Shown here piece by piece: positions 5,026 to 49,622 of a DNA stretch of 64,000 nt. The notes under the pieces are model-generated. The model saw only the letters and a program-made list of their open reading frames with translations, had not been told where the DNA came from and did not search any database. Location: NCBI GenBank assembly GCA_963781885.1, contig CAWAHW010000003.1, positions 128,001 through 192,000 on the forward strand. The letters run 5' to 3'. This DNA comes from an uncultured Spirochaetota bacterium (GTDB lineage: Bacteria > Spirochaetota > Spirochaetia > SZUA-6 > Fen-1364). Numbering within the stretch: the stretch's first letter is position 1; every line of letters begins with the position of its first letter. The position numbers and the translations under genes are program-made.

Positions 5026-5071
5026 CGTGCGCCCCCTCTCAAACGAGCATCTGGGAATGTCGCTATTTTCA

Positions 5072-5100
5072 ATTCTGAAGGCCTCGCCACCGTCTGTCAA
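5072..5100 (-). promoter_or_regulatory. Sigma70-type promoter for the cytidylate kinase-like gene
   Basis: Minus strand TTGACA-17 bp-CAGAAT. Confidence 0.55.
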
Positions 5101-5170
5101 GCAAACAAGCGGGGACGCACGCCTCAAGCCGCGGAAATCGTGAACCAGTTGTTCAACGACGCACACGCTT

Positions 5171-5866
5171 TCATGGAGTCACCAGGAACCGCACCCCGGC
5201 CTCCGCGTGCGCGGCCATGGTGTCGAAACGTGGCACGGAAAGATCCTCCTGCGTGACGATGAGGGGAAGCTCCGTACAGCCCAGCACGATCCCCTCGGCG
5301 CCGCGCGCGACGAGCTCCGCGGCCGCCTCCAGCACGTATGTGCGGGACGAATCGAGGAACTGTCTCGCGCACAGTTCGTCGAAGATGATGGCGTTGATCC
5401 GTTGTCGGCGCGGCGCATCCGGGATGAGGGATTCAACGCCGAAGCGCTCACGAAGACGCGCCCGGTAGAAGTCCTTCTCCATGGAATAGCGCGTGCCCAG
5501 GAGCCCAATCCTCTTCACCGAGGCCGCCCGGATCCTCTCTCCCACCGCGTCCGCGATATGGAGAAGGGGAACGCCCGCGGCCTGTTCGACTTCGTCGGCG
5601 AACAGGTGCATGGTATTGGTGGCAATCATGATCCCGTCCGACCCGGCGGCGGCCAGAAGCCGCGCCTCGGCCAGGAGCACGGCCTTCACCGCGGGCCAGT
5701 CTCCGCGCCCCATTGCGTCGGAGAGCTCCTGGAACTCCACCGAGCTCACGAGCAGCCGCGCGGAGCGTGACCCGCCCAGCTCCCGCTGCACCCCCTCGTT
5801 GATGAGCCGGTAGTATTCAGCGGTTGAGAGCCAGCTCATGCCACCGATGATTCCCAGCCTCTTCAT
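5171..5866 (-). CDS. Aspartate/glutamate racemase family protein (YgeA/RacX-like)
   Basis: GIIGGMSWLST, ATNTMH, LGCTELP. Confidence 0.9.
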   Translation of the reverse strand: MKRLGIIGGMSWLSTAEYYRLINEGVQRELGGSRSARLLVSSVEFQELSDAMGRGDWPAVKAVLLAEARLLAAAGSDGIMIATNTMHLFADEVEQAAGVPLLHIADAVGERIRAASVKRIGLLGTRYSMEKDFYRARLRERFGVESLIPDAPRRQRINAIIFDELCARQFLDSSRTYVLEAAAELVARGAEGIVLGCTELPLIVTQEDLSVPRFDTMAAHAEAGVRFLVTP

Positions 5867-5879
5867 TCCCGTCCCCCCT

Positions 5880-7280
5880 TCACTTCTTTTCTACCGCCGC
5901 GCGCGCAGCGACGAACGCCCTGACCGACCTCTCGACGTCATCCCCCGCGGTCGCGTAGGAGCAGACGCTGATGCGGATTGCGGGTGCGCCGTTCCATGTC
6001 GTCCCTCCGCACCAGCATTCACCCGACGCCTGGATTCGTGAAAGGGTCGCCTGGGTGAGCTCAGGCGTCGCGCAAGCCGCAAGAACCTGGTTGAAGACAA
6101 CATCGTTCAGGATCGTGAAGCCCTCCCGGGAGAGCAGGCGGGCGAAGAGCTTCGCCATGCTGTGCAGTTCCTCCACGAGAGCGGCCGCGCCGGACCTGCC
6201 CAGGGACATGAGGGTGGCCCACAGATCCACCGCACGGGCGCGGCGGGACATGTCGGGGACGTAGAGCATCTCGTCGCGGTTCTCTCCATACTCGACATAC
6301 GCCGCCGAGGCGCGCATGGCGTTCACGAGCGCGTCCCTGTCCCGGCAGAAGACGATCCCATTGTCGTAAGGGGCATTGAGGGTCTTGTGTGCGTCGGTGG
6401 ACCAGGAGTCCGCGAGTGCCGCGCCTTCGGTCAGATGGCGCAGGCGGGGGGAACCCGACGCCCAGAGTCCGAAGGCGCCATCGACGTGCACCCATGCGCC
6501 TGCCGCGCGCGCTGGGGGGATGATGGCGGTGAAGGGATCAAAGGCGCCCGTGTTCACGTTCCCCGCCTGGAGAATGAGGAGGGTCCGCGCATCCAGGACG
6601 GGCATGCGGGATGGGTCCATCCTGCCGTGCGCGTCCACGGGAACGAGCTCCACCCGGTCCCGGCCGAGGCCGAGGAGGCCCAGGGCCCTGAAGACGCTCA
6701 TGTGCGCCTGCGTGCCCAGGACCACACGGATCTCAGGAGCACCGATCAGCCCCCTGCCGCCGCAATCCCATCCAGCGCGGCGGAGGAGCTCGTCACGCCC
6801 GGCGGCCAGGCCGCAGAGTGTGGCCATCGACGTGCCCCCCACCAGTCCGGCCACCGTCCCGGGAGGCAGACCGAGCAGGTCCACGAGCCACCTCTCACAG
6901 GCGGACTCCAGATGGGCGGCGATGGGGGACATCACGTACAGCGCGGCGTTCTGATCCCACGCATCCGCGATCCATTTGGCGGCAATAGCGCCCGGGAGGC
7001 TTCCACCGTTCACGAAGCCGAAATACCGCCCACCCGTCGTGGCCGCGGTTGCGGGAGAGCCGTGCCGATGGAGCAGATCCACGATACGTGACGGCTCCGT
7101 CGGATCTTCCGGCAAGGCCGCGGGGAGCACGGCAAGCCCCTTGAGAGCGGCGGCGTCCGGCACGACGCGCATCTCCCTTGCGCCGGCCGCATACTCGGCG
7201 GCGCAGGCGCTGGCGTGGTCGAGCAAACGCGTGTCCCGCGCCTGCTCCCGCAATGTCCGTAGAATCTGCTGTGATTCCAT
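5880..7280 (-). CDS. Group II PLP-dependent decarboxylase
   Basis: RYFGFVNGG, WVHVDGAFG, DSWSTDAHKTLN (PLP lysine); RBS GGAGG before ATG 7280. Confidence 0.85.
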   Translation of the reverse strand: MESQQILRTLREQARDTRLLDHASACAAEYAAGAREMRVVPDAAALKGLAVLPAALPEDPTEPSRIVDLLHRHGSPATAATTGGRYFGFVNGGSLPGAIAAKWIADAWDQNAALYVMSPIAAHLESACERWLVDLLGLPPGTVAGLVGGTSMATLCGLAAGRDELLRRAGWDCGGRGLIGAPEIRVVLGTQAHMSVFRALGLLGLGRDRVELVPVDAHGRMDPSRMPVLDARTLLILQAGNVNTGAFDPFTAIIPPARAAGAWVHVDGAFGLWASGSPRLRHLTEGAALADSWSTDAHKTLNAPYDNGIVFCRDRDALVNAMRASAAYVEYGENRDEMLYVPDMSRRARAVDLWATLMSLGRSGAAALVEELHSMAKLFARLLSREGFTILNDVVFNQVLAACATPELTQATLSRIQASGECWCGGTTWNGAPAIRISVCSYATAGDDVERSVRAFVAARAAVEKK

Positions 7281-7418
7281 CTCCGCCTCCTGGTCTCCGG
7301 GGGGCGCGTCGCGTTGACAGCCGTGTCTGGCCGGGCGCCCCGGGGGGATGCACGAACGGTAGCCCTGGAAAATGTATGCAGTCAATACTATACTTGTCTG
7401 CAATACATTATGAATGCA

Positions 7419-8807
7419 ATGACTACATCCTGGAAGCCGGCAAGCCTCAATGACGACCTTCCCCTTTACCGCGCCATTGCCGAGGCTCTTGCCGGGGATA
7501 TCTCCTCGGGGAGGCTTCGTCCGGGGCAACGGCTCCCCTCCCAGAGACGGCTTGCCGCCCTGATCGGCGTGGACCTGAGCACCGTCACACGCGCCCTTGC
7601 CGAATGCCAGAGGCGCGGCCTCATTCAGTGCACCGTGGGACGCGGGACCTTCGTCACGGCGGACGGGGGTGCGCCCCTTGCCCTGGCGCGCGTGGAGCAG
7701 GCGTCCCGGGCGCCACTCATTGAGATGGGCCATGTGCTGCCTCTCTATGACCAGGAGAAGACGGGCAGGGATGCAATCCGCCGCTTCCTTCCCGCTCTGG
7801 ATCTGGAGCGATGTTTACGCTACACGGACCCCGAGGGCATGCGCAGGCATCGGGAAGCGGGCGCGGCATGGGTGAAGCGCGCGGGGGTCGCGGTGCGGCC
7901 GGAGAACGTGCTTGTGACCGCGGGTTCGCAGAATGCCATTGCCTGCTGCCTGCTGGCGCTCTTCAAGCCGGGGGATTCCATTGCCGTTGACGAGCTCACT
8001 TTCACCGGCCTCAAGGCCATAGCGCGGATGCAGGATATCCGGCTGATCCCAGTCGAGATGGATGACCATGGCATGCTCCCCGACGCATTGGAGAGGGCCT
8101 GCCGGCGCGAGCACCCGCGTGGGCTCTACCTCATGCCGGATTTTCAGAACCCCACGACCTCGGCGCTGCCGGAGGATCGGAGGAGTGAAATTGCCCGGCT
8201 CATCGAGCTGCACGATCTCATATTCATCGAGGATGACGCCTACGGACACACGGTGGGACGCCACACGGCGCTCAGCGCGCGTGTCCCCGAGCGGGGGATC
8301 TACCTTGGGGGGACCTCGAAGCTCTTCGGCGCCGGGTTGCGCATCTCATTCGTGGCCTGTCCGGCCCGCTTCGTCGCACAAATGGGGGGCGCCGTTCTCG
8401 GCACGGTGTGGATGGCCTCTCCGCTGAACGCGGAGCTCATGACGCGGATCATCACGGGCGGCCATGCTGAGCGGATCATCACCGCCAAGCGGGCGGAGGC
8501 GCGCGCGCGGACCGTGATGGCCCAACGGAAACTGGCGCCGTACCGTCTGCATGCGCGCGAATCCGGTTTCTCCGCATGGCTCGCCCTTCCGTCGGGCTGG
8601 ACGGGACGTGATTTCGAGCTCTCCGCGCGGGACGTGGGGGTCCGGGTATTCGCGGCTGAGAGGTTTGCCATTGGCGGCAGGGCGGCGCCCGCCGCGGCGC
8701 GGATCTCGCTCACGGGGCCGGAGACGAGGGAGGAATTGTCCCACGGCTTGGATATACTGGCGGATGTGCTCGCCCGGGGACGTGTCTCTTCCTCCGCCAT
8801 CCTGTAG
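7419..8807 (+). CDS. MocR/GabR-family regulator (GntR HTH + aminotransferase-like domain)
   Basis: LRPGQRLPSQRRLA...VGRGTFV HTH; FQNPT, IEDDAY, GTSKLFGAGLR; divergent from the decarboxylase; alternative start 7410. Confidence 0.9.
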   Translation: MTTSWKPASLNDDLPLYRAIAEALAGDISSGRLRPGQRLPSQRRLAALIGVDLSTVTRALAECQRRGLIQCTVGRGTFVTADGGAPLALARVEQASRAPLIEMGHVLPLYDQEKTGRDAIRRFLPALDLERCLRYTDPEGMRRHREAGAAWVKRAGVAVRPENVLVTAGSQNAIACCLLALFKPGDSIAVDELTFTGLKAIARMQDIRLIPVEMDDHGMLPDALERACRREHPRGLYLMPDFQNPTTSALPEDRRSEIARLIELHDLIFIEDDAYGHTVGRHTALSARVPERGIYLGGTSKLFGAGLRISFVACPARFVAQMGGAVLGTVWMASPLNAELMTRIITGGHAERIITAKRAEARARTVMAQRKLAPYRLHARESGFSAWLALPSGWTGRDFELSARDVGVRVFAAERFAIGGRAAPAAARISLTGPETREELSHGLDILADVLARGRVSSSAIL

Positions 8808-8856: not shown

Positions 8857-9996
8857 TCATCCGCGGTAGGATCGCCGGTAGGCGCCGGGCGTTGCACCCT
8901 GGACTTTACCAAAAGTGGAATAGAAACGCGGGGCGCTGGCGAAGCCGGTTTCTGCCGCGATGGCGGCGATCGTGAGGGTCGTGTCCCGAAGCAGCCGGCG
9001 CGCCTCGTCGATCCGCCTGCGGACGATCTCCTGGTGGATGCTGCGGCCCAGCGTGCTCCGAAACCTTTTCTCCAGCGTCCGCCGCGAGCACGGGATTGAC
9101 ACGAGGAGCTGCGCGACGGTGAGCCGTCCCGCCGCGGCACCGTGTATCGCTGCCAGTGCACGGTCCACCAGTGCGTCTCCCGTGGCGAGCGCCCGGGTGG
9201 ACTCGCGTTCCACCACTTCGCGCGGGGCAACGACGGCCGGCTCGGAGGGGCCGGGCCGGCCGTCCAGCAGGGCGGCCAGGGCCTCCGCCGCCTCCCACCC
9301 GATGCGTTCCAGGTCCAGCGCGATGCTGGAAAGGGGCGGCACCGACAGCTCGCAGAGGATATCTTCGTTGTCCACCCCCAGGATGGCGAGATCCGACGGA
9401 ACGTGCAGGCCCAGCCGCCGGCAGGCGGCCGCCGCCTTCAGTCCCACCGTGTCGTTGCAGGCGAAAAGGGCGGCGGGCGGGGGGAGGGCGGCAAGCCACC
9501 GGTCGAAACGCTCCGAGTGATGAAGCTTCTCCCACCAGTCCAGGGGCTGCTCGAACACGGAGAGGCGGGCAGGTCCGACCGCCTCGCGAAAGGCCTCGCG
9601 TCGTGCCCGCGACCATCCCACGCGCGCCACGCCGCAGAAGGCGAAGCCGCGTCGCCCCAGCGCCTTCATGTGGCGGCCGGCGAGACGGCCCGTGGCGCGG
9701 TCGTCGTTGCTGACCTGGCGGAACCCCGGACGGAGCCACGCGCCGGCAACGTCCACCACCGGGATCCCGCGCGCGGCGAGGCGGTCCGCGTCGCGGCGGG
9801 ATTCGATGCGCGCGATGATCCCGTCCCCGTCCCAGCGCTCCAGGGATCCCATCGCCTGGAACATCCACCCGAAGCCGTACAGGTCCCAGTCCGGCCGGCC
9901 GCGGGCGTAGCGCACGACCCCCCGCGCCACCCCGTGCTCGTAGTGGTCGATGAGACCCATGAACAGGCCGACCCGCTTTCGTCGATGCGCCCGCAT
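8857..9996 (-). CDS. XylR-type activator (LacI-like sensor + AraC HTH)
   Basis: DGIIARI, FACND, ILGVDNE, PPLSSI, VVERESTR, C-terminal IAAETGF...TPGAYR. Confidence 0.88.
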   Translation of the reverse strand: MRAHRRKRVGLFMGLIDHYEHGVARGVVRYARGRPDWDLYGFGWMFQAMGSLERWDGDGIIARIESRRDADRLAARGIPVVDVAGAWLRPGFRQVSNDDRATGRLAGRHMKALGRRGFAFCGVARVGWSRARREAFREAVGPARLSVFEQPLDWWEKLHHSERFDRWLAALPPPAALFACNDTVGLKAAAACRRLGLHVPSDLAILGVDNEDILCELSVPPLSSIALDLERIGWEAAEALAALLDGRPGPSEPAVVAPREVVERESTRALATGDALVDRALAAIHGAAAGRLTVAQLLVSIPCSRRTLEKRFRSTLGRSIHQEIVRRRIDEARRLLRDTTLTIAAIAAETGFASAPRFYSTFGKVQGATPGAYRRSYRG

Positions 9997-10089
9997 GATC
10001 ATCCCTTTCGTAAAACGTTATAAAGTATACGCATTTCGGGCATCCCGGGAACGGGCCGGCGGCTTATGATGAGGATGTGGAGGAACCGC

Positions 10090-11097
10090 ATGGAGAAGAA
10101 TGACCTGATCACAGTGGCCGGTGCGGGCGGGTTCATCGCCGGCTCGCTCGTCCGCTATTTCCACGACAAGGGATTCACCCGGATCCGCGCCGTGGACAAG
10201 AAGCCCCTCACGGAATGGTACCAGCGCACGCCCGGCGTGGAAAGCCTCAGCCTCGACCTGAGCGATCCCGATAATTGCCGGCGCGCCGTGGAGGGTGCCG
10301 CCGAGGTGTACAACCTGGCCGCGGACATGGGGGGCATGGGCTTCATCGAGCGTCACCGCGTGGACTGCCTTCGAAGCGTGCTGATCAACACGCACATGGT
10401 CGAGGCCGCCTGGCGCGCGGGGGCGCAGCGCTACTTCTTCTCATCCTCGGCCTGCGCGTACAACACCGATCTGCAGAAGGACCCGAAGGTACGGGCGCTG
10501 AAGGAGTCCGACGCCTATCCCGCGATGGCGGAGCGGGGTTACGGCTGGGAGAAGCTGATCTCGGAGATGTTCTGCCAGGAGTACACGGCGGAACGGGGCT
10601 TGTCGACGTTCATCGCGCGGTTTCACAACGTCTACGGTCCCAACGGCACGTGGGACGGGGGCCGTGAGAAGGCGCCCGCGGCGTTGTGCCGCAAGGTCAT
10701 CGAGGCCAAGGACGCCGGTGCGAAGGAGATCACGATCTGGGGAGACGGGACGCAGACGCGCAGCTTCATGTATATCGACGACTGCACGAAGGGCATCGAC
10801 CAGATCATGCACTGTGAGAAGCTGCTGGCCACCCCCATCAACCTCGGCTCATCCGAGCTTGTCTCCATCAATGAGCTGGCGACACTGGCGGAGAAGATCG
10901 GGGGCGTGAAGCTCACGCGGCGCTATGATCCCACCGCGCCTCGGGGCGTGGCCGGGCGCAACAGCGACAACACGATGATCCACTCCATCCTGGGCTGGGA
11001 GCCGAACACGCCGCTTTCGGACGGGCTGGCAAAGACCTACCACTGGATCGAGCAGCAGTACCGGGACAAGAAGTCAGGCAAGCGGACAGTGAGCTGA
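10090..11097 (+). CDS. GDP-mannose 3,5-epimerase-like NAD-dependent epimerase
   Basis: GAGGFIA, NLAADMGGMGFI, SSACAY, YGWEK, RFHNVYGP..TWDGGREKAPAALCRK, WGDGTQTRSF. Confidence 0.85.
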   Translation: MEKNDLITVAGAGGFIAGSLVRYFHDKGFTRIRAVDKKPLTEWYQRTPGVESLSLDLSDPDNCRRAVEGAAEVYNLAADMGGMGFIERHRVDCLRSVLINTHMVEAAWRAGAQRYFFSSSACAYNTDLQKDPKVRALKESDAYPAMAERGYGWEKLISEMFCQEYTAERGLSTFIARFHNVYGPNGTWDGGREKAPAALCRKVIEAKDAGAKEITIWGDGTQTRSFMYIDDCTKGIDQIMHCEKLLATPINLGSSELVSINELATLAEKIGGVKLTRRYDPTAPRGVAGRNSDNTMIHSILGWEPNTPLSDGLAKTYHWIEQQYRDKKSGKRTVS

Positions 11098-11102
11098 CCG
11101 GC

Positions 11103-11900
11103 ATGGGGCATGATCTGCGCACGGTCATCGGGCCGATCCCCTATCGCATGGCATTCGCGGGCGGCTGGATCGACCAACCATTCGTCTCCCGGCTGAACCC
11201 GCAGCCGCCGGGCTCCATGGTGACGGTGGCGGTTGAGCCGACATTTCGATGGATGGATCGCTGCGGCATGGCCACCTCCACGCGCACGGTGGCCATGCGC
11301 CACTGGGGCGGGCGGATGCCGGACGGGGACCCCGCCCGTCTGGTTCGGGAGCTGTATGACGCGGAGAATCGGGGCAAGGCCGAGCCGTCCGGATCCCAGG
11401 ACATGGTCGGACTGCTCTATCCCGGCGTGTGCCGGCTTGACTATGACGCATCCGTGGAGGGCGGCGTGTTCCCGAGCGCCGTGGAGAGTTGCTCGTCGCC
11501 CGAGGTGGCGCGGTGGCTGGAGCGGATCATCAAGGTGCTGCCCGTGGCCCCGAGGCCGGCGGGCTACGAGCCGCTGGCGGTCAAGAACCTGGACCCGGCG
11601 TGGATCGCGCGGCTGGGGAGATCGGGACGCTCCTGCTGGGAGGCGATCCTGGCGATGGACGCCGCCGCGCTGGGTGAGTCGATGAACGAGTGCATGCGAT
11701 GCTGGGAAGCGCTGCTGCCCCTCGTGGTACGGCCGCCGGAATCGCCCGTCGACCTGGCAGGGCTCCTGCGCTGCTACCAGGAGCGCTCTCACGGGGCGAT
11801 GTACTCGGGATGCGGCGGGGGCTACCTGTACATCGTGAGTGAGGAGGCGGTCCCGGGCACTTTCGGCGTGCAGGTCCGCACCCGGAGCGCCGGGGGGTGA
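11103..11900 (+). CDS. Atypical GHMP-superfamily sugar kinase
   Basis: PYRMAFAGGWIDQP, GMATST, SGSQD, YSGCGGGY. Confidence 0.7.
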   Translation: MGHDLRTVIGPIPYRMAFAGGWIDQPFVSRLNPQPPGSMVTVAVEPTFRWMDRCGMATSTRTVAMRHWGGRMPDGDPARLVRELYDAENRGKAEPSGSQDMVGLLYPGVCRLDYDASVEGGVFPSAVESCSSPEVARWLERIIKVLPVAPRPAGYEPLAVKNLDPAWIARLGRSGRSCWEAILAMDAAALGESMNECMRCWEALLPLVVRPPESPVDLAGLLRCYQERSHGAMYSGCGGGYLYIVSEEAVPGTFGVQVRTRSAGG

Positions 11901-12721
11901 GCGTGCGCACGGTATTTGTGACGGGGGCATTCGACGACCTGGGAGCCCGCCACGCGCGCCTGCTGCACGAGTGCTCGCGGATCGGCGAGGTCGTGGTCGG
12001 GCTGTGGTCGGATGCGGCGGTATCCGCGGCGTCCGGTACGCCGCCGAAGTTCACGTTTGCCGAACGGCGCTATCTCCTGGAGTCGCTGCGTTTCGTCGCC
12101 CGCGTCATTCCCGTCGAAAACCACCGGCAGCCGGAGCTGTCGCGGGAGGGGGCCGCCGCGCCCGTGGTGGGCTGTGACGTCGGCGCATCTTCCGCGGAAT
12201 CAGTCGCCGCCCGCGCGGCGGCCGGGGCGCTCCACGCCGACCTGCGCACGTTCGGGGACGTGGAGCTGGCGGGGTTTCCGGACATCCCGGTCTCCCCTCC
12301 CGATCCGTCGCGGCGGCGGGTGGTCGTCACCGGATGCTTTGACTGGCTTCATTCCGGGCATGTCCGGTTCTTCGAGGAAGTGGCGGGCCATGGAGAGCTG
12401 TACGTCGTCGTCGGTCATGATGCGAACGTGAGGCTCCTCAAGGGCGAAGGCCATCCTCGATTCTCCCAGGACCACCGCCGCTACATGGCGGGCAGCATCC
12501 GCCACGTCCACCAGGCACTCATCTCCTCGGGATCGGGATGGATGGACGCCGAGCCGGAAATCGCCGCCATCGGCGCGCAGGTCTACGCGGTGAACGAGGA
12601 CGGCGACAAGCCCGAGAAGCGAGAGTTCTGCCGCACGCACGGCCTGGAATACCTTGTGCTCAAACGGGTGCCAGCGGCGGGGCTGCCGCGCCGGTCCAGC
12701 ACCGACTTGCGTGGCTTTTAG
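11897..12721 (+). CDS. Cytidylyltransferase-like (HxGH) nucleotidyltransferase with two tandem domains
   Basis: Degenerate TGAFDDLGARH and intact TGCFDWLHSGH; C-terminal RRSSTDLR; GTGA overlap with the kinase. Confidence 0.8.
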   Translation: MSVRTVFVTGAFDDLGARHARLLHECSRIGEVVVGLWSDAAVSAASGTPPKFTFAERRYLLESLRFVARVIPVENHRQPELSREGAAAPVVGCDVGASSAESVAARAAAGALHADLRTFGDVELAGFPDIPVSPPDPSRRRVVVTGCFDWLHSGHVRFFEEVAGHGELYVVVGHDANVRLLKGEGHPRFSQDHRRYMAGSIRHVHQALISSGSGWMDAEPEIAAIGAQVYAVNEDGDKPEKREFCRTHGLEYLVLKRVPAAGLPRRSSTDLRGF

Positions 12722-12864
12722 CGGCCTCTCCGTGGCGCTCCGGTATCTGCCCGCGCCGGCGCGGGTTCCGCGCGCGAGTGCCGGAAATCGAACGTTTTGT
12801 GACGTATTCTCGATTGTGTTCGCTCCGGGCCCGTGCCTACATGGGCGGTGAGCAGGTCCCCCTC

Positions 12865-14421
12865 ATGCAAGAGATAATTCTCGAGGTCGAAAACGTTTCC
12901 AAGAGCTTTCCCGGCGTGAAAGCGCTTGACCAGGTCTCGTTCGATCTCCACAAGGGCGAGGTCCATGCCCTGGTGGGGGAAAACGGGGCGGGCAAGTCGA
13001 CGCTCATGAAGATACTTTCCGGCGTGCACCAGCCGGACGAAGGTGTCATCCGCTTCAAGGGACGCGAAGTGCGTTTCCACGATTCCACCCAGGCACGGGA
13101 TGCCGGCATCGGGATCATCTACCAGGAGCTCAACCTTATTCCCCACCTGTCGGTGGCTGCCAACATCTTCATCGGCAGGGAGCCGCTCACGCGGCTTTTC
13201 ACCCTGAACGAAAAGAAAATGAATGAAGACGCCGTCGCCATCCTGGGGCGGCTGAATATCCGGATCGACCCGACAATCAAGCTGAATCGGCTCCCGATCT
13301 CCAAGCAGCAGATGGTGGAAATCGCGAAGTCCCTCTCGTTCGATTCGGAAGTGCTCATCATGGATGAGCCGACCAGCGCGCTTACCGAATCGGAGATTGA
13401 CGAGCTGTTCACCGTCATCCATACGCTTCGCGACCGTGGGGTCGCGATCATCTACATCTCCCATCGCCTGGAAGAGCTGAAGCATATCGTGGACCGCATC
13501 TCCATCTTCCGCGACGGTCGCTCCGTCAGCACGGACGTGTACTCCGCGATCACAATGGACACCATCGTCAACCGGATGGTGGGCCGGACCCTGGAGCAGA
13601 AGTTCCCCGCGCGGCACAACGTGCCCACGGAGGAGAAGATCCTCGACGTCAGAGGCATCACGCGCAAGGGCGTCCTGCACGACATCTCCTTCGACCTGTA
13701 CCGCGGCGAGATCCTCGGCTTTGCCGGGCTCATGGGCGCCGGCCGCTCCGAGCTGGCGCGGGCAATCTTCGGCGCAGACCCCATCGACGCGGGAACCGTG
13801 ACGATGAACGGGAAGAAGCTCACGTCGCTCACCCCCTCGGAATCGATCCGGGCGGGAATCGCCTATCTCTCGGAAAACCGCAAGCAGGAAGGGCTCGCGG
13901 TGAGGATGAAGGTGGCGGAGAACGTCTCCATGGCCAACATGGCCGGTGTGACCAGCCGCATGGGTGTGATCTCGCGCCGCCGCGAGCTGCAGGCGTGCCA
14001 GCGGTACGTGGATGAGCTGGCCATCCGCACCCCGAGCCTCATGCAGGTCGTCAACAACCTCTCCGGCGGGAACCAGCAGAAGGTCGTCGTGGCCAAGTGG
14101 CTCTTCTGCGATTCGAAGGTCCTCATCTTCGACGAGCCGACCCGGGGAATCGACGTCGGCACCAAGTTCGCCATTTACGAGCTGATCGAGCGGCTGGCCC
14201 GGGAGGGGGTCGGGGTCATCATGATTTCCTCGGAGCTCCCCGAAATCCTGGGAATGACCGACCGCGTCCTCGTGCTGCACGAGGGCAGCCTTGAAGCCAC
14301 CCTGGTGACGAAGAATACGACACAAGAGGAAATCCTCAACTTTGCGGCGGGTCTGGGCGGGAGGGCCGAAAGGCCTTTGAATGGCCAGTCACGCCCGGCG
14401 GAAGAGAGAACCCAACCATGA
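12865..14421 (+). CDS. Monosaccharide (CUT2) ABC transporter ATP-binding protein
   Basis: GENGAGKST, MDEPTS, LSGGNQQKV, DEPTRGIDVG. Confidence 0.95.
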   Translation: MQEIILEVENVSKSFPGVKALDQVSFDLHKGEVHALVGENGAGKSTLMKILSGVHQPDEGVIRFKGREVRFHDSTQARDAGIGIIYQELNLIPHLSVAANIFIGREPLTRLFTLNEKKMNEDAVAILGRLNIRIDPTIKLNRLPISKQQMVEIAKSLSFDSEVLIMDEPTSALTESEIDELFTVIHTLRDRGVAIIYISHRLEELKHIVDRISIFRDGRSVSTDVYSAITMDTIVNRMVGRTLEQKFPARHNVPTEEKILDVRGITRKGVLHDISFDLYRGEILGFAGLMGAGRSELARAIFGADPIDAGTVTMNGKKLTSLTPSESIRAGIAYLSENRKQEGLAVRMKVAENVSMANMAGVTSRMGVISRRRELQACQRYVDELAIRTPSLMQVVNNLSGGNQQKVVVAKWLFCDSKVLIFDEPTRGIDVGTKFAIYELIERLAREGVGVIMISSELPEILGMTDRVLVLHEGSLEATLVTKNTTQEEILNFAAGLGGRAERPLNGQSRPAEERTQP

Positions 14422-15422
14422 GCGACACCCACGCACCACGCAAAGACCCGAGGGGCCACGACCCGGCCGCTGCTCCCGGACGATCCCGGATGGCGGTGGA
14501 CAGGTTCCTCACGTTCGGCGCGGTGGTCGTGCTGTTCGGCGTGTTTTCAATCACGGCGAAGAACTTTTTCACCATGCGCAACGTCCTGAGTCTCCTCCTG
14601 CAGACCAGCACGACCACTCTCATGGGAATCGGCGTGACATTCACCATCATCACCGCCGGCATCGACCTTTCCATCGGTTCGGTGGTCGCCTTTACCGGCA
14701 CGGTCGCGGTGATGGCCGCCATCGCCGGGGTCCCGATCTGGATCAGCTGGATAATCGGCCTGGTGGTCGGGGCCTTCTGCGGCTTCCTGAACGGTCTCAT
14801 GATCACCGGGCTGAAGCTCCCGCCGTTCATCGCCACCCTGGGCATGACCTTCGTCGTCCGAGGCGTGGCGCTCACGATCACCAACGCCAACGCGTGGCCC
14901 GCGCCGGATGCGTTCGGCGCGCTGGGCAACAACACGCTCTTCCGCACCGGGCCCAAGTTCCCCGGCATTCCCTACCCCGTCATCGTCATGGCAGTTGTTG
15001 CCGTGCTTTTCCATTTCATCCTCCGCAAAATGCGCGTCGGCAGATACACGTACGCGGTCGGTTCGAATGAAGAGGCGGCCCGGCTTTCCGGCATCAAGGT
15101 CGGCCGCATCAAGATCATCAACTACATCATCTGCTCGACACTCGCCGGCCTGGTCGGCGTCATTCTCGCTTCCCGCATGGTCACCTCGCAGCCCAACAGC
15201 GCAAGCGGATACGAGCTGAATGCCATCGCCTCCGCGGTCATCGGCGGCACGAGCCTCATGGGCGGCGTCGGCACGGTGGGGGGAACGGTGATCGGCTCGT
15301 TCATCATCGGCATCATGACGGTGGGGCTCACCATGCAGGGCACGAACTATTTCATGCAGCAGATCGTGATCGGCGTCGTGGTGATCCTGGCCGTGGCCTT
15401 CGATCAGAGACGCAACAAATAG
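14418..15422 (+). CDS. CUT2 ABC transporter permease (RbsC-like)
   Basis: GIDLSIGS, PPFIATLG, GSNEEAARLSGI, YELNAIASAVIGG. Confidence 0.95.
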   Translation: MSDTHAPRKDPRGHDPAAAPGRSRMAVDRFLTFGAVVVLFGVFSITAKNFFTMRNVLSLLLQTSTTTLMGIGVTFTIITAGIDLSIGSVVAFTGTVAVMAAIAGVPIWISWIIGLVVGAFCGFLNGLMITGLKLPPFIATLGMTFVVRGVALTITNANAWPAPDAFGALGNNTLFRTGPKFPGIPYPVIVMAVVAVLFHFILRKMRVGRYTYAVGSNEEAARLSGIKVGRIKIINYIICSTLAGLVGVILASRMVTSQPNSASGYELNAIASAVIGGTSLMGGVGTVGGTVIGSFIIGIMTVGLTMQGTNYFMQQIVIGVVVILAVAFDQRRNK

Positions 15423-15492
15423 GAGTCATTGCGACAGCAATGAGAAATACCGCGACCCGTATGGGCCGCGGAGTTGGTTCAAGGAGGTCGGT

Positions 15493-16453
15493 ATGAAGAA
15501 GCTTCTTTTCATTCTCGTGGCGCTCGCCTTCATCGCCGGATTCGCGTCCGCGCAGGAAATCGCGGTGATCGTGAAAACGGGCAACTCCAGCTACTGGCAG
15601 AACGTCCAGACCGGGTGCTTCGACGCACAGAAAGAGCTGAAGGCAAAAACCCCGAAGCTGTCGGTGACGTTCCTCGGGCCCCAGTCGGAGAGCAACATCG
15701 CGGAAGAAATCAACATCGTCGAGAGCGCGATTGACCGTGGCGTGAAGGCGATCGTCCTTGCGCCGTCGGATGTCACCGCCCTTGTGCCGGCCGTGAAGAA
15801 GGCCAAGGATGCCGGCATCCCGGTCATCGTCATTGACTCGCTGCTGAGCGGTCCCACTTCCAACTACGTCTCCTTCCTCGCCACCGACAACGACGCGGCG
15901 GGAAGGGCGTGCGCGAAGGAAATGATCGACCGGGTGAAGGCAGCCACCGGCAGTGACAGCGGGAACATCGCCGTCATGTCGTATGTCGCCGGCGTTGGCT
16001 CGGAGATTGGCCGCGTGGGCGGCTTCAAGGATTACATCGCGAAGAACTCGCACCTCAAGATCGTGACCACGCAGTACTCCAATGCCGATATGCCGACCGC
16101 GCTCAACCAGACCACCAACGTCCTCGCGGCGAACCCCGACCTCGTGGGAATCTTCGGGGCCAACGAGCCGACGGCCGTCGGCATGGGCCGCGCCATCGCG
16201 CAGGCAGGTCTCGCGGGCAAGATCGTTGCCATCGGGTTCGACGGGAACGCCGCCCTCCAGGGCTTCATCAAGGACGGGACCATTCAGGCAATCGCGGTGC
16301 AGAGCTCTTACAACATGGGGTACCTCGGAGTGAAGTCCGCGTACGACGCCGCTTTCGCCAAGAAGAAGATCCCCGCGACAGTCGATACCGGGTTCATCAT
16401 CGTGACCAAGGACAACATCGACTCCACGGCCGCCAAGAACGTCCTGTACCTAG
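15493..16453 (+). CDS. CUT2 sugar-binding protein; true stop probably TAG 16451-16453, displaced by a 1-base insertion (the given ORF reads on to 16548)
   Basis: Signal peptide, RbsB-like motifs; GTCCTGTAC-C-TAG followed by an atypical tail and a hairpin. Confidence 0.88.
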
Positions 16454-16468
16454 ACCGGGCCATTTTCT

Positions 16469-16504
16469 GCGACCGCCCTTGTTCTCCTTCGCGAGGGCGG
16501 TCGC
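16469..16504 (+). terminator. Stem-loop after the binding-protein gene
   Basis: GCGACCGCCCT...AGGGCGGTCGC, 11-bp stem, followed by TCCTTTCT. Confidence 0.55.
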
Positions 16505-16575
16505 TCCTTTCTCCACCTGGCAGGCAGGCCCGCTTTTGGTTATCCTGAGCGCGGTGAAAGAACGGCGCGTGACAT

Positions 16576-18189
16576 ATGTACAGGTTCCTGATGGTGGACG
16601 ACGAAGAAATCGTCCGCCGCGGCTTCCGACGCAAGATAGACTGGGCCAGCCTCGATTTCGAGTTCCTCGAGCCGTGTGAGAACGGGGAGCAGGCCATCGA
16701 GGCCATCGGGGCACTCCATCCCGATGCCGTCATGACGGATATCGCCATGCCCCACGTGGACGGGCTGGACGTCGCTGCCTGGGCCGCGGAGCACCACCCC
16801 GAAATCGTCATTTTGATTCTCTCGGGGTACGACGAGTTCGAATACGCCCAGAGGGCAATCAAGAGCAACGTCTTCGAATATGTGCTCAAGCCGGTAACCT
16901 CCCGGGATCTCACCGCACTGCTCGAAAGGCTGAAGGTGCGGCTGGATCACCTCCGGCGTTCCCGCGAGGAAACGAAGTCACTCGAGCTGCGGGCGGAAGC
17001 CGCATCGAGCTTTCTGAAGGCGCGGACCCTCCTCGACCTCGTGAGCGGCGCGGCGGACAAGATTCCCGATTCCCGGTTCCAGGAGGTCTTTGGCTTCCCG
17101 CCGCAGGGCCTGGCCGGTGCCGTGGTGATTGCGCAAGATGATCCCGCCGGCGAGGGAGAGCTCGACGTCTCGACCCGACTCCCGGCAGCGGCGGCGGAGG
17201 TAGCCGGCTCGGCCCGCCGCGTGTTCTGCTTTTCTCCCGGTGAAGGGCGGGAGGCCATCCTGATCCTGGAGCAGGATACCCTCTCCTGCGACCGCCTGGC
17301 TTCCGCGATCGCCGCACGGGCGGCGGCCCCCGTCGGCCCGGCGCCGTCCGCGGTTCGCGTTCCGATCGTCGGAATGGGTCGGCCGTACGAATCGTGGCGT
17401 GACGCGGCCCGAAGCTTCGCGGAGGCGGTCGCCGCCCTTTCCTACAGGCTCGTTTCGCCGCCGGGGGGAGTCTTTCGCTACGGGAGGGAGCGGGAGGACG
17501 ACCCGCAGACCCTCGAAGGTCTTGCCGAACAGCGAGAGCGCACCTGCCGCGCCACGGTCGCCGGTGAGACGGTGGAAGCGGAAAACCATTCAGCCGCTTT
17601 CGCGGCGCTGCTGCGGGAGGGCGGCATCTCTGCCCACCGCGTGCGGCACGAGATCGAGGCGCTGTTTGCCGCCGTCCTGGACGCGTTGCGGGACCTTGGC
17701 GTCTCCTCGTCAGCCGTGGCCCAGGACCTCCGGCTGGACCCCGATCTCGCCGTGCAGCGACTGCGCACGTCAGAGGACGTGACGGCGCTCCTCGTGCGGT
17801 TGGCGACCTACGCGGGCTCGATCCTCGATGGGCGCAACCTTCCCGCCCCGGAATGGAAGGTGCGCGACTTCAAGGACTACGTGGCCCGGCACTATGGGGA
17901 GCGGGCGCTCTCGGTGCAGACCATCGCCGCGAGCCTCTCCATCAGCGCGAGCTACCTCTCCAAGCTGATCAAGCGCCACCTGGACCGAAGTGTGGTAGAC
18001 TATCTCATCGACTACCGCATGGAGCGCGCCAAGGAGCTTCTCTCAACCTCCGACCTGATGACGTACGAGATCGCGGAAGCAACGGGCTACCCTGACGCGC
18101 AGTACTTCAGCACCGTGTTCAAGCGGCACATCGGGATCACCCCGACGGAGTTCCGGGCCCGGCGGAGAGGCAAGATCTCGCGCCCATGA
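16576..18189 (+). CDS. YesN-like response regulator (REC + AraC)
   Basis: VDDE, TDIAMP, SGYDEFEYA, YVLKP; C-terminal GYPDAQYFSTVFK. Confidence 0.92.
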   Translation: MYRFLMVDDEEIVRRGFRRKIDWASLDFEFLEPCENGEQAIEAIGALHPDAVMTDIAMPHVDGLDVAAWAAEHHPEIVILILSGYDEFEYAQRAIKSNVFEYVLKPVTSRDLTALLERLKVRLDHLRRSREETKSLELRAEAASSFLKARTLLDLVSGAADKIPDSRFQEVFGFPPQGLAGAVVIAQDDPAGEGELDVSTRLPAAAAEVAGSARRVFCFSPGEGREAILILEQDTLSCDRLASAIAARAAAPVGPAPSAVRVPIVGMGRPYESWRDAARSFAEAVAALSYRLVSPPGGVFRYGREREDDPQTLEGLAEQRERTCRATVAGETVEAENHSAAFAALLREGGISAHRVRHEIEALFAAVLDALRDLGVSSSAVAQDLRLDPDLAVQRLRTSEDVTALLVRLATYAGSILDGRNLPAPEWKVRDFKDYVARHYGERALSVQTIAASLSISASYLSKLIKRHLDRSVVDYLIDYRMERAKELLSTSDLMTYEIAEATGYPDAQYFSTVFKRHIGITPTEFRARRRGKISRP

Positions 18190-19937
18190 AGATCCGCCGC
18201 ATCCAGGACACCCTGATCCGCGCCATCGCCACACTCATCGTGGTCGCCCTGGTCCTGCTTGGGACGCTGTCGTACTACTACCTTCACAAGATCCTCATCC
18301 AGAACGCGGAGGAAGGGACGATGCAGCTGGTGAGCCAGCTGAACCGCATCATCGAGAACTACATCAGCTACATGGACGACATCGCCCTGATGGCCATCAA
18401 CAACACGGACGTGAGGGAGTTCATGTCACGCCCTCGCGCGGATTCTCCCCAGCTGCGCGCGAAGATCGAAGCCACGTTCGAGTCCCTCCGGGCCGTCCGC
18501 CGCGACATCGATTCCGTGTTCGTCATCACCCGGGACGGGCGCGCCATCGCCGCGACCACCGGGCGCGCGTTGAATCCCACGGTGGACCTCCGGCAGCGGT
18601 TCCTGGAGCTGGAGGCCGGGGTCGTTCCGGACCGGCCGTCGGTGTCTTCCGCCCACGTGGAAAACCTCGTGGATTACCGTTATCCCTGGGTGATCTCCCT
18701 GGTTCGCGTCTTGCCGGTCGGACCCGGAGAGCAGAGCCCCGGGCTCATCCAGGTGGACCTCAACTACGACATCATTGCGCGCCTGTGCAAGGACATCCAG
18801 CTGGGCACCTCCGGGTACGTTTTCATCCTGAGCCGCGGCGGAGACATCGTGTATCACCCGCGGCAGCAGCTCATCTACGGGAACCTCAAGTCGGAGCGGA
18901 TCGCGGAAATCATGGCCCTCCATGGCGGGAACCTCAACGCCGTGGTGGACGGCCGGGCGATCCTCTACACCGTTGTGAGCTCGAAGGACACGGGCTGGGA
19001 CGTCGTTGCCGTCTCCTACCTGGACGAGCTGTTCCGCGCCAGCCGGCAGGCGGAGTACGTCTTCCTCATGCTCTCGCTGCTCGTCCTCGTCGGGGCCATC
19101 GCCGCCGCAATGGCGATCTCGTCGAACATCTCCCGGCCGATCGAGAGCCTGCGGCACTCGATGCAGGCCGTGGAGAGCGGCAACTTCGACATCGACATCA
19201 CCGTCAATGCGCGCAACGAAATGTACCAGCTCGCGCGGGATTGCGACATCGCGGTGAAGAAGGTGCGCGACCTCATCGAGCAGAACCGCCGCGAGCAGGA
19301 GATCAAGCGGAAGCTGGAGCTGCGGGCGCTGCAGGCGCAGATCAACCCCCATTTCCTCTACAACACGCTGGACTCGATCATCTGGATGATCGAGCTCGGC
19401 GAAACCGAGCGGGCCATCGACATGACCTCCTCCCTGGCCCGGTTCTTCCGCATCGGAATCAGCCGCGGAGAGGAGACCATCAGCGTCCGCACGGAGATGG
19501 AGTACATGCAGACGTACCTGGAGATCCAGAAGCAGCGCTACAAGGACAAGCTCTCCTATGAGATCGCCTTCTCGCCGGATCTCTACGATTCCCAGATCCT
19601 CAAGCTCCTTCTGCAGCCGCTGGTGGAGAACGCCATTTACCATGGGATCAAGAACATCGCGGGGCCCGGGCTCATCCGGATTGACGGCGTGCGCGACGGG
19701 GAGTCAATGGTGATCCGCATCAGCGACAACGGCGTGGGGATGGCTCCCGATCAGCTCGCGGCGCTCCGCGAGGGGGTGATCGAGCCCCGTCCGACCAACG
19801 GCGTGGGGGTGCGCAACGTGCAGGAACGCATTCACGTCTACTTCGGGCTGGAGTACGGCGTGAGCTTCGAGAGCACGCCCGGGGCCGGTACGGTGGCAAC
19901 GGTCCGCATCCCGGTGAGCGCGGGGAGCGCAACGTGA
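18186..19937 (+). CDS. YesM-like sensor histidine kinase (dCache, HAMP)
   Basis: LQAQINPHFLYNTL, LQPLVENAIYHG, DNGVG. Confidence 0.93.
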   Translation: MKIRRIQDTLIRAIATLIVVALVLLGTLSYYYLHKILIQNAEEGTMQLVSQLNRIIENYISYMDDIALMAINNTDVREFMSRPRADSPQLRAKIEATFESLRAVRRDIDSVFVITRDGRAIAATTGRALNPTVDLRQRFLELEAGVVPDRPSVSSAHVENLVDYRYPWVISLVRVLPVGPGEQSPGLIQVDLNYDIIARLCKDIQLGTSGYVFILSRGGDIVYHPRQQLIYGNLKSERIAEIMALHGGNLNAVVDGRAILYTVVSSKDTGWDVVAVSYLDELFRASRQAEYVFLMLSLLVLVGAIAAAMAISSNISRPIESLRHSMQAVESGNFDIDITVNARNEMYQLARDCDIAVKKVRDLIEQNRREQEIKRKLELRALQAQINPHFLYNTLDSIIWMIELGETERAIDMTSSLARFFRIGISRGEETISVRTEMEYMQTYLEIQKQRYKDKLSYEIAFSPDLYDSQILKLLLQPLVENAIYHGIKNIAGPGLIRIDGVRDGESMVIRISDNGVGMAPDQLAALREGVIEPRPTNGVGVRNVQERIHVYFGLEYGVSFESTPGAGTVATVRIPVSAGSAT

Positions 19938-20926
19938 GGAGCCGGTCCGTCCTGTTCCTGCTCGCGGCGGCGGTCCTTGCCGCCGCTTCGCTCACCATCC
20001 TGTACCACGGGGCTCGTCTTCTCAACCCCGTCTCCGCCGCGACACGACGTGTGATCGTCATCTTCAAGACCGTCGACTACCGCACCACGCCGTTCTGGGG
20101 CAACGTGCGGGATGGCGTGGTGTCCGCCGGCGAGGACCTGGGCATGACGGTGCAGATTCGGGGACCGACCCTCGAAACCGACATCGCGGGCCAGATCGAC
20201 ATCGTGCGCCAGGCCATTCGTGAAAAGCCCGACGCCATTGTCCTGGCCGCCGCGGACTACAACCTGCTCGTGCCGTTGGCGCGGGAGATCAAGCGCCAGG
20301 GCATCCCCCTTGTCTGCATAGACTCATTCATCAATTCCGATGATGCCGACACGCGGATCGGCACGGACAGCTACGAGGGCGGCCAGAAATGCGCGGCGGC
20401 CCTGATGCGCTATGTGAAGCCCGGCGACCTGGTCGCGGTCATGAGCTACGTGAAGGGCAGCTCGACGGCCATCGACCGCGAGTCCGGAACCCGTGACTAC
20501 CTGGACGGCAAGGTCAGGATCCTCGACACGCTGTACAGCAACGCGGATGCAAAGCTCGCCTATTCCCAGGCGGCCCGATTGATCGCCGATACTCCGCAGC
20601 TTCGCGGGATCGTCGCATTGAACGACCCCACCGCCAGCGGGGCGGCCCGCGCCCTGGATGAATCGGGCAAGGCAGGCTCCATCGCGCTCGTCGGCTTCGA
20701 CAATTCACTCCTGGTGCTGCGCGATGTGGAGAGGGGCATCATCCGCGACACCGTTGTGCAGAAGCCGTTCAACATGGGGTACCTCGGGATCACGACGGCG
20801 CGGGACCTCATCATGCGCCGCAAGCCCGCAAAGTTCATCAACACGGGCTCGGTCGACATCTCCCGGCTCAACATGTTCCAGCCGGAGAACCAGAAGCTGC
20901 TATTTCCCGTCACCGAAGGACAGTAG
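19934..20926 (+). CDS. Membrane-anchored RbsB-like binding protein co-encoded with the two-component system
   Basis: N-terminal TM, FWGNVRDG, VGFDNS, VQKPFNMGY; GTGA overlap with the kinase. Confidence 0.85.
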   Translation: MRSRSVLFLLAAAVLAAASLTILYHGARLLNPVSAATRRVIVIFKTVDYRTTPFWGNVRDGVVSAGEDLGMTVQIRGPTLETDIAGQIDIVRQAIREKPDAIVLAAADYNLLVPLAREIKRQGIPLVCIDSFINSDDADTRIGTDSYEGGQKCAAALMRYVKPGDLVAVMSYVKGSSTAIDRESGTRDYLDGKVRILDTLYSNADAKLAYSQAARLIADTPQLRGIVALNDPTASGAARALDESGKAGSIALVGFDNSLLVLRDVERGIIRDTVVQKPFNMGYLGITTARDLIMRRKPAKFINTGSVDISRLNMFQPENQKLLFPVTEGQ

Positions 20927-49597: not shown

Positions 49598-49622
49598 TTC
49601 GCGACCTCTTCTGAATGAACTT

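Follow-up and report, generated by a model that had tools for sequence, protein, structure and literature searches.

A candidate nucleotide-sugar route for L-galactose assimilation, pairing a GDP-mannose 3,5-epimerase homologue with an unnamed GHMP-fold kinase and a HIGH-motif nucleotidyltransferase

[quoted passage not shown] The epimerase gene (10066-11097, + strand) is followed after 5 nt by the gene for P3, a 265-residue protein of an unnamed family (11103-11900, +), which shares a 4-nt overlap with the gene for P4, a 274-residue nucleotidyltransferase (11897-12721, +). Genes were called from the listing of open reading frames (ORFs) together with Pfam and NCBIfam profile scans, and these bear out the description, given in an earlier note on this DNA, of three tightly coupled genes with a divergent regulator of XylR type and a monosaccharide importer. 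From the gene identities, folds, motifs, linkage, fusions and neighbourhoods that we observed, we consider it probable, though by no means assured, that the locus is an inducible module assimilating L-galactose via nucleotide sugars, an analogue of the Leloir and Isselbacher pathways assembled from other enzyme families.

The first protein of the trio has the architecture of an extended short-chain dehydrogenase/reductase (SDR), with 123.6 bits to Pfam Epimerase and the NAD-binding motif GAGGFIAG at residues 18-25. Over residues 11-337 it matches the plant GME structures 8SG0, 2C59, 2C54, 2C5A and 2C5E at E values from 8e-79 to 9e-78 (265-269 bits), compared with 100 bits for the best GDP-L-fucose synthase and 31-33 bits for HldD (against about 268 for GME). 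Its SSAC, YGWEK and GGREKAPAA motifs align with SSAC, YGLEK and GGREKAPAA of 8SG0, so that the GME motifs of the earlier note, SSAC and REK among them, are upheld by alignments at E of about 1e-78. None of the NCBIfam equivalog thresholds was reached (Fcl 122 against a cut-off of 500). By these matches the SDR is a close homologue of GME, and it presumably catalyzes the same reaction. GDP-mannose 3,5-epimerases (GM35E) are described as working through a Tyr-x3-Lys pair and an acid/base Cys and Lys that epimerize C5 and C3 (PMC6678494), with an equilibrium reported to be unfavourable toward L-galactose (PMC8787198). The assimilatory direction, from GDP-L-galactose to GDP-D-mannose, would therefore be downhill.

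P3 is silent in sequence searches, giving no Pfam match (E to 0.001), no NCBIfam match (E to 0.01), no PDB match even at E 10 and no match among plasmid records, and in the ESM Atlas only unnamed clusters and distant GHMP leads. Its AlphaFold2 (AF2) model, built from 36 homologues (pLDDT 93.6), matches GHMP kinases with a Foldseek probability of 1.0, and VIA-align gives Z scores from 22.5 to 15 over 210-243 aligned residues, the heptokinase WcbL coming top (Z 22.5), with the fucokinase part of FKP, in a structure holding beta-L-fucose 1-phosphate, at Z 20.8 (19% identity), galactokinases at about 19 and mevalonate kinases at 18-19. As modelled, P3 is a minimal protein of GHMP-kinase fold, nearest to anomeric sugar 1-kinases, and the "atypical GHMP kinase" of the earlier note is borne out at the level of predicted fold. 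The conserved stretches G-M-A-T-S-T-R (55-61) and G-x-x-x-S-G-C-G-G-G-Y (231-241) stand at the expected places of GHMP motifs but are atypical against the canonical ones; the GHMP_kinases_N and GHMP_kinases_C profiles leave P3 unrecognized, the latter matching 3 of 18 more distant relatives scanned. The family is large, with at least 7702 of 8000 scored candidates at E 0.001 and 662 clusters at 50% identity, and a relative is encoded in at least 568 of 600 pattern-matching stretches checked in species-representative genomes. Of the 120 matches listed, not one has a precomputed Pfam domain, and those named at source are all called "hypothetical protein".

P4 exceeds the cut-offs of Pfam PF01467 (CTP_transf_like; 45.5 bits against 21) and TIGR00125 (56.1 against 27.7), and both NCBIfam and PDB 3ELB match it in two stretches. 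By its motifs it comprises two HIGH-type domains in tandem, of which the N-domain is degenerate and the C-domain catalytic. The C-domain keeps the HSGH and RRSSTD motifs in the window protein and 32 orthologues, with H152-S-G-H155 and R266-S-S-T269 including invariant or near-invariant positions (26 sequences, and likewise in the window protein and the 32 orthologues). The N-domain reads L-x-x-R-H in the same set and is probably not catalytic, since the first His is absent. The AF2 model (pLDDT 89.3) superposes over its whole length on the tandem fold of human ethanolamine-phosphate cytidylyltransferase (ECT; TMq 0.71-0.74), the single domains finding 3GLV, TagD and the heptose-1-phosphate adenylyltransferase HldC. 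The HxGH transferase originally proposed is thus confirmed as a HIGH-family nucleotidyltransferase, which a sister clade carries fused to the kinase, and is amended in being a tandem with a degenerate N-domain; the qualifier "HldE-type" holds as resemblance only. HldE orthology was rejected, P4 scoring 66.8 bits against a cut-off of 181.5 for RfaE domain II (TIGR02199) and 51.5 against 521 for HldE (NF008454). An ADP-heptose reading was set aside with it, P4 falling far below the equivalog cut-off, GmhA and GmhB being absent among the window domains found, and the epimerase lying much nearer to GME than to HldD.

Do these three genes belong together? Their conservation was followed in the best 80 genome loci with P3 relatives (clade 1; loci are numbered with L), all from metagenome-assembled genomes (MAGs), neighbours being tallied by tblastn and so not dependent on ORF calls; the Pfam chart of neighbour families leaves out a batch of 75 neighbour ORFs, and rare families there are uncharted. 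The loci span at least nine phyla or groups (Spirochaetota, Verrucomicrobiota, Planctomycetota, Acidobacteriota, Chloroflexota, Latescibacterota, Armatimonadota, Lentisphaerae and one gammaproteobacterium). A GME gene stands beside P3 in 70 of the 80 (55-92% identity) and P4 in 54, with partial GME or C-domain-only P4 matches in several further loci, many at contig ends; the clustering is far beyond chance. Identity across phyla is unusually high (P3 64-72%, GME 73-82%), and P3 is found in all 18 other genomes of its own genus, in 2 of 12 from other families of its order and in none of 120 genomes sampled elsewhere in the phylum. Such a patchy distribution, together with the high identity, suggests horizontal spread of a self-contained module. 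It might still be supposed that an envelope epimerase, a hypothetical protein and a cofactor-type adenylyltransferase lie by chance beside a ribose-like transporter, given that P3 has no family assignment and that the N-terminal stretch of P4 weakly matches pantetheine-phosphate adenylyltransferase models in NCBIfam. However, gene order is kept in at least nine phyla, the window genes are joined by an overlap and a very short gap, and a second clade fuses the transferase to the kinase with GME still upstream, so that we hold such a coincidence to be extremely improbable.

The neighbours of the clade-1 trio are those of sugar utilization. Regulators include LacI in 16 of the 80 loci, a divergent AraC in 13 and the XylR type in 8; mutarotases are represented by FucU (11) and RhaM (1), glycoside hydrolase family 29 (GH29) enzymes lie within 300 nt in 5, and an SSF symporter is present in 2. 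A ManC-like guanylyltransferase accompanies 15 loci, always on the same strand and in 10 of them starting 16-31 nt after P4, and one Pirellulales locus (L022) has the order GME-P3-P4-phosphomannose isomerase-ManC. The earlier note had looked to polysaccharide biosynthesis loci as the setting that would speak against an assimilatory role; glycosyltransferases occur near the trio in 5 of the 80 (WecG 2, GT9 2, GT4 1) and are directly adjacent in only one. Two loci show GME and P3 in one open frame (L015, a Planctomycetia MAG, 6903-8777, 624 aa without a stop; also L002), which could be a real fusion or an indel artefact of assemblies suspected to be long-read, and which was not used as fusion evidence.

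Some lineages present other surroundings. In five Acidobacteriota loci (L024, L029, L030, L033, L054) the genes upstream encode a GH38 enzyme, an unnamed 216-aa protein, a metallo-beta-lactamase-fold protein and a DAHP synthase, and those mostly downstream a DUF1080-type 3-keto-disaccharide hydrolase and an unnamed 764-aa protein. The GH38 genes, 3.8-4.8 kb off, led us to consider uptake of D-mannose for GDP-L-galactose synthesis, a reading rejected as leaving the importer orthology, the mutarotases and the L-galactosidase-type GH29 unexplained. In five Latescibacterota loci (L044, L047, L063, L066, L072) the trio lies between an unnamed 918-aa protein (no Pfam match) and PcfJ-like and AAT-like genes, with malate synthase G and type III pantothenate kinase upstream, a context not obviously related to sugars.

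The linkage recurs in more distant P3 relatives (30-45% identity), in 13 of 18 of which the kinase is fused to a cytidylyltransferase-like domain, one of the 13 also having a RhaM mutarotase at its N-terminus and one a PNP/UDP phosphorylase domain; a PF00483 domain was found in none of P3, P4 and the fused relatives scanned. One fusion type was followed through 80 metagenome loci (L085-L164; clade 2). No fewer than 20 of them fall short of 4.4 kb in length, which makes the counts minimum values. In at least 62 of the 80 the gene directly upstream of the fusion encodes a homologue of GME (identity 57-63% with the one in the window), with GH29 downstream in at least 44, LacI in at least 28 and a ManC-like gene in at least 11, and queries from the clade itself add GH31 (at least 10), MFS (at least 7) and RhaM (at least 7). 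The order is LacI (-), GME, transferase-kinase fusion, ManC-like, MFS, RhaM, GH29 in L144, and GME, fusion, MFS, RhaM, NTP_transferase, LacI, GH29 in L126; L093 and L102 have GH31 upstream, together with an arabinofuranosidase-like gene (L093) or a GDSL esterase (L102), neighbours that by analogy would resemble degradation of xyloglucan or pectin side chains. With a GC content of 0.39-0.44 (five loci measured) and an RteC gene nearby, clade 2 probably stems from Bacteroidota. It looks like a classical sugar-utilization operon, linking kinase, transferase and GME independently of clade 1. Directly upstream of the operon in L144 (392-3510), one of five clade-2 loci Pfam-scanned, lie genes for D-lyxose/mannose isomerase, a PfkB kinase and mannitol dehydrogenase, a possible further link to mannose and fructose metabolism.

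Which sugar such operons handle is indicated first by their glycosidases. In both clades the trio-linked GH29 enzymes find their best PDB match in BpGH29 (7LJJ, 7LK7, 7LNP, 7SNK), that of L025 at 468 bits and about 53% identity (counted from the alignment) against 274 bits for the next fucosidase, and that of L093 at 330 against 210. BpGH29 is described as an exo-alpha-L-galactosidase of the Bacteroides plebeius porphyran locus (10.1101/2023.03.30.534863), and for its Asp327 a part in fixing O6 of L-galactose has been reported (PMC9774334). The WQTD motif holds the only Asp near that index (index 327 in 7SNK) and is probably, on an inferred numbering, the site of this O6-binding residue; it is kept in 4 of the 5 clade-1 and 43 of the 44 clade-2 GH29 neighbours. 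These enzymes would thus belong to the L-galactosidase subtype, pointing to L-galactose.

The importer offers a second indication. It has the CUT2 architecture of a fused double ATPase, a BPD_transp_2 permease and a Peripla_BP_4 binding protein. The ATPase gene (about 12865-14421, +), recognized by NCBIfam and by two Pfam ABC_tran domains, occupies the greater part of ORF 12538-14421, in which the RbsA, XylG, AraG and AlsA matches begin at residue 110-114; it is followed by the permease gene (14418-15422, +; Pfam BPD_transp_2, RbsC-/AraH-like in NCBIfam) and the binding-protein gene (15493-16548, +). The earlier note had placed the feature at 8857-16453; its start stands, and its end moves to 16548, where the binding-protein gene ends. 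Because the NCBIfam equivalog cut-offs are not reached (RbsA 579 against 745; AlsB 137 against 335), the substrate would not be one of those named there. Orthologues of the binding protein accompany the trio in 11 of the 80 clade-1 loci, ten at 78-94% identity and one at 53%, in Spirochaetota and Chloroflexota. On a Neorhizobium plasmid an orthologous ABC system (binding protein 63% identical) stands directly upstream of genes annotated as D-threo-aldose 1-dehydrogenase, lactonase-like amidohydrolase, rhaM, 2-keto-3-deoxy-type oxidoreductase, HpcE-like gene and L-fuconate dehydratase, a set recognizable as the oxidative pathway for L-fucose, L-galactose and D-arabinose; a Paraburkholderia orthologue has other neighbours. 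By analogy, the Neorhizobium orthology points to a sugar of L-fucose/L-galactose type as the proposed ligand. The assimilatory L-sugar route foreseen in the earlier note thus finds catabolic-type contexts, and the GH29 type and the Neorhizobium importer narrow its sugar to L-galactose.

L-fucose itself was ranked lower as the main substrate. The genome of the window encodes an L-fucose isomerase (FucI, 1004.7 bits against an equivalog cut-off of 850) and so has a separate entry route for L-fucose; no recognizable fuculokinase or aldolase was found among the 14 ORFs scanned around FucI, the search being limited to that neighbourhood. Epimerization at C3 and C5 converts GDP-L-galactose into GDP-D-mannose, from which fructose 6-phosphate can be reached by a single pyrophosphorolysis followed by two housekeeping reactions. 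The same reaction on GDP-L-fucose would yield GDP-D-rhamnose, for which we know of no catabolic route or entry into central metabolism, and this apparent dead end, together with FucI and the L-galactosidase subtype of GH29, counted against L-fucose.

On this basis we propose the following route, in which the substrates throughout, the nucleotide, the flux direction and the regulatory circuit are our inference. Free L-galactose would be imported by the CUT2 system, in other lineages after release by exo-alpha-L-galactosidases of BpGH29 type. P3, as an L-galactose 1-kinase, would phosphorylate the anomeric carbon to give beta-L-galactose 1-phosphate, and P4, as the corresponding nucleotidyltransferase, would convert this into NDP-L-galactose and pyrophosphate (PPi), the nucleotide most likely being GDP, as the GME homology and the ManC-like neighbours lead us to think. 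The GME homologue, running in its thermodynamically favoured direction, would then take GDP-L-galactose through GDP-L-gulose to GDP-D-mannose, from which a ManC-type guanylyltransferase would form mannose 1-phosphate and GTP, consuming PPi and regenerating the nucleoside triphosphate (NTP). Phosphomannomutase (PMM) and phosphomannose isomerase (PMI) would complete the path to fructose 6-phosphate. Candidates for the last steps are present on the same contig (C3): a ManC-like gene about 74 kb upstream (C3:53874-54956), with 52% identity to its operon-borne counterpart in a related spirochaete, and, adjoining it about 70 kb upstream, a single open frame of 1089 aa (C3:55776-57899) with phosphomannomutase-type and type I phosphomannose isomerase domains, which may be a fused PMM-PMI enzyme.

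The trio would be controlled by the divergent regulator (8857-10002, -), which has Pfam domains Peripla_BP_3, HTH_18 and HTH_AraC and matches the E. coli XylR structures 4FE4 and 4FE7 at E 9e-50 over residues 7-376, with Pfam PBP1_XylR at 26.9 bits, just below the cut-off of 27. In domain make-up it is a regulator of XylR type, a periplasmic-binding-protein fold joined to an AraC helix-turn-helix (HTH), and its orthologues (52-86% identity) lie divergently 82-518 nt from the trio in the eight clade-1 loci of this type. Between regulator and epimerase, the intergenic region 10003-10065 presumably carries the promoters and operator and contains the near-palindrome TAAAACGTTATAA. The octamer AAAACGTT or its complement recurs at 10011-10019 in this region, at 12791-12798 upstream of the ABC ATPase gene and at 12890-12897 just inside it, and may be an operator. 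A promoter scan gave no sigma-70-like site, and terminator-like sites numbered 8 against a shuffle mean of 7.3, that is, no excess. Among matching sequencing runs no RNA run is listed, only DNA runs with at most 0.12 of the sampled words.

A second layer of control may act on the importer. Downstream of the binding-protein gene lie a YesN-like response regulator (16576-18189, +; REC and AraC HTH in Pfam), which probably governs the importer, a histidine kinase with dCache, HAMP, His_kinase and HATPase_c domains in Pfam (18186-19937, +), for which a sensory role is presumed, and a second binding-protein-like gene (19934-20926, +; Pfam Peripla_BP_4), whose product finds its best PDB match in the same structure, 4WUT, as the transport binding protein (167 bits), of which it is a paralogue. 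The set travels with the transport binding protein in L006-L008 and L016. From its domains the segment 16576-20926 looks like a three-component extracellular sensor for the importer's ligand, and this paralogy and co-occurrence suggest that sensor, kinase and response regulator would control the importer.

Several findings weigh against L-galactose assimilation. For the nucleotide, the solved or curated matches of P4 (ECT, TagD, HldC, pantetheine-phosphate adenylyltransferase, RfaE domain II) are all users of CTP or ATP, and no guanylyltransferase of cytidylyltransferase fold is known to us, though no search was made for one. For the sugar, the closest solved relative of the transport binding protein, 4WUT (about 62% identity counted from the alignment, E 6e-101), was crystallized with D-fucose, not an L-sugar, and the next-closest, 4RXT, reportedly holds D-arabinose. 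L-galactose is a minor sugar in nature, odd beside so wide a distribution of the trio, and L-fucose, to which FucU, RhaM and GH29 are classically tied along with L-rhamnose, is far commoner. In the host genome itself (92.55% complete), the sole GH29 found is 27% identical to the trio-linked type and has no WQTD, and FucU was not found; in that no enzyme of BpGH29 type was found, the host would depend on free L-galactose or on other hydrolases. Such points could mean that the same kinase-transferase-epimerase logic serves L-fucose, D-arabinose or L-gulose, or runs on CDP- or ADP-linked sugars, toward a product whose fate is not yet recognizable. This we consider unlikely: by chemical reasoning an L-fucose variant would end in GDP-D-rhamnose, FucI already provides for L-fucose, the linked GH29s are of the L-galactosidase subtype with the probable O6-binding Asp, and the ManC-like and PMI neighbours indicate GDP-mannose.

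There are further adverse points. In five of the 80 clade-1 loci (L018, L025, L045, L058, L076) there is room upstream of P3 but no GME, ManC-like neighbours are confined to a minority of loci in both clades (15 and 11 of 80), with PMI adjacent in only one, and among the 18 distant P3 relatives scanned two carry fused glycosyltransferase domains. The literature assigns bacterial GME to biosynthesis, lipopolysaccharide (LPS) or antibiotics being proposed (PMC8787198, PMC6678494), and the only characterized bacterial GME, MfGM35E of Methylacidiphilum, is described as adjoining a glycosyltransferase. PMI, ManC and GME together constitute the biosynthetic route to GDP-L-galactose, so their presence beside the trio fits a supply role too. 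P3 and P4 might then activate imported L-galactose or L-fucose to a GDP-sugar, as FKP does, whose fucokinase part is among the nearest folds of P3, leaving GME, ManC and PMI to balance the GDP-L-galactose pool for glycosyltransferases elsewhere and a surface glycan as the end product; the glycosyltransferases near a few clade-1 loci would agree. We judge salvage of this kind rather unlikely, mainly because GME would be superfluous once kinase and transferase had yielded GDP-L-galactose, yet it is the most constant partner (70/80 and at least 62/80), and the operons holding it stand under regulators that respond to sugars. With importers, mutarotases and an exo-glycosidase added, the usual neighbourhood is that of a catabolic operon. 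Conserved glycosyltransferases are lacking beside the trio, none was found among the ORFs scanned in the window, and the high cross-phylum identity agrees with a self-contained module having been transferred. L-galactose assimilation remains the reading we prefer.

The rest of the window agrees in character with sugar utilization, its genes including two-component systems, ABC importers, GH65, GH13 and GH4 enzymes, a GatZ-like protein and LacI and DeoR regulators. As the earlier note had stated for the immediate surroundings, glycosyltransferase, flippase and polymerase domains were not found by Pfam among the ORFs scanned across the 64 kb. Upstream of the XylR-type regulator, positions 4204-8807 hold a MocR-type GntR-aminotransferase regulator (7314-8807, +), a 617-aa pyridoxal-phosphate (PLP)-dependent decarboxylase (5880-7733, -), an Asp/Glu racemase (5171-5866, -) and a cytidylate-kinase-like/BON protein, which appear to form a separate, amino-acid-related unit. 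Farther downstream, two neighbouring TPR-rich proteins (42994-47048, -), one with a C-terminal CHAT protease-like domain, break up the sugar island; the gene at 48761-50173 (-) encodes an RmlD-type reductase domain (residues 193-467) after about 190 residues without a Pfam match at E 1e-10 and adjoins GMC oxidoreductase-like genes; and at 55182-56933 (-) a glycyl-radical enzyme (PFL-like and Gly_radical), N-terminally truncated against the profile (beginning at profile position 246), adjoins a DeoR regulator.

How does the proposed route compare with known ones? Its closest analogue in logic is the Leloir pathway with its Isselbacher (pyrophosphorylase) variant: a GHMP anomeric kinase, nucleotide activation, an SDR epimerase leading to a mainstream NDP-hexose and release of hexose 1-phosphate, two opposed pyrophosphorylase steps recycling NTP and PPi as they would here. 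It differs from the Leloir set of GalK, GalT or UDP-sugar pyrophosphorylases, and GalE in its probable sugar (L-galactose) and probable nucleotide (GDP), and in that the kinase is a minimal 265-aa GHMP protein, that the transferase carries HIGH motifs and is neither a HIT-family GalT nor a PF00483 protein, and that the epimerase would invert C3 and C5, passing from the L to the D series, rather than C4. With plant GME and MfGM35E the epimerase shares full-length homology, aligned catalytic motifs and presumably the reaction; theirs is described as biosynthetic, serving ascorbate and the cell wall in plants, whereas the context here implies the reverse, assimilatory direction in company with kinase and transferase. 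The Bacteroides FKP (9IIP, 9IIT) likewise joins a kinase to a nucleotidyltransferase, as clade 2 does, and brings a free L-galacto-configured sugar into NDP form, but its transferase is of PF00483 type and precedes a kinase part of about 360 aa in a 950-residue chain, in contrast to the HIGH fold and short kinase of the trio; FKP serves glycan synthesis, whereas GME accompanies kinase and transferase here.

Heptose systems (HldE/HldC, HddA/WcbL) also combine a sugar kinase, GHMP or other, with a sugar-1-phosphate nucleotidyltransferase of HIGH fold, WcbL being the best fold match of P3 and HldC among those of P4. Unlike in these systems, the window domains found include neither the heptose-7-phosphate isomerase GmhA nor the phosphatase GmhB, and the setting is one of L-galactoside import and hydrolysis rather than of LPS core synthesis. 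Oxidative L-galactose catabolism, which reportedly operates in Bacteroides vulgatus, is described for Luteolibacter LG18 (PMC12632266). It has the same presumed substrate and ecological purpose, but acts through a dehydrogenase on the free sugar via L-galactonate, with no C1 phosphorylation, nucleotide sugar or epimerase. Full-text literature searches, with most subscription journals outside their coverage, found no nucleotide-dependent L-galactose catabolism, "L-galactokinase" or bacterial GDP-L-galactose pyrophosphorylase, which agrees with the earlier note, whose author knew of no described pathway of this form. The one match for a pyrophosphorylase of GDP-L-galactose was a kiwifruit review, and such L-galactose catabolism as these searches brought up is oxidative; the main text of an FKP phylogeny paper (PMC12732313) mentions neither L-galactose nor cytidylyltransferase. 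We are accordingly inclined to regard the combination as new, Leloir-type logic carried out by a new cast of enzymes on a new sugar, with GME in a new role.

If the proposal holds, it would assign a function to the large, highly conserved and unnamed P3 family and give a new physiological role to GDP-mannose 3,5-epimerase, an enzyme known from plant vitamin C synthesis. The route would be redox-neutral and oxygen-independent and would avoid L-glyceraldehyde, which would suit anaerobes of the peat, sediments and soils where it occurs, and it would have consequences for how the L-galactose in pectin, xyloglucan, mucilages and red-algal galactans is recycled. The enzymes would serve, besides, in the preparation of GDP-L-galactose and L-galactose 1-phosphate, which are called scarce and costly in the GM35E literature. 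To a broader claim we give about an even chance: that this is a widespread and undescribed catabolism converting an L-hexose into a D-hexose at the level of nucleotide sugars, with P3 as a new kinase family, P4 as a guanylyltransferase, believed to be the first of the cytidylyltransferase fold, and GME running in reverse, such that in many environmental bacteria GME would chiefly serve to assimilate the L-galactose of plant and algal glycans rather than to build the envelope.

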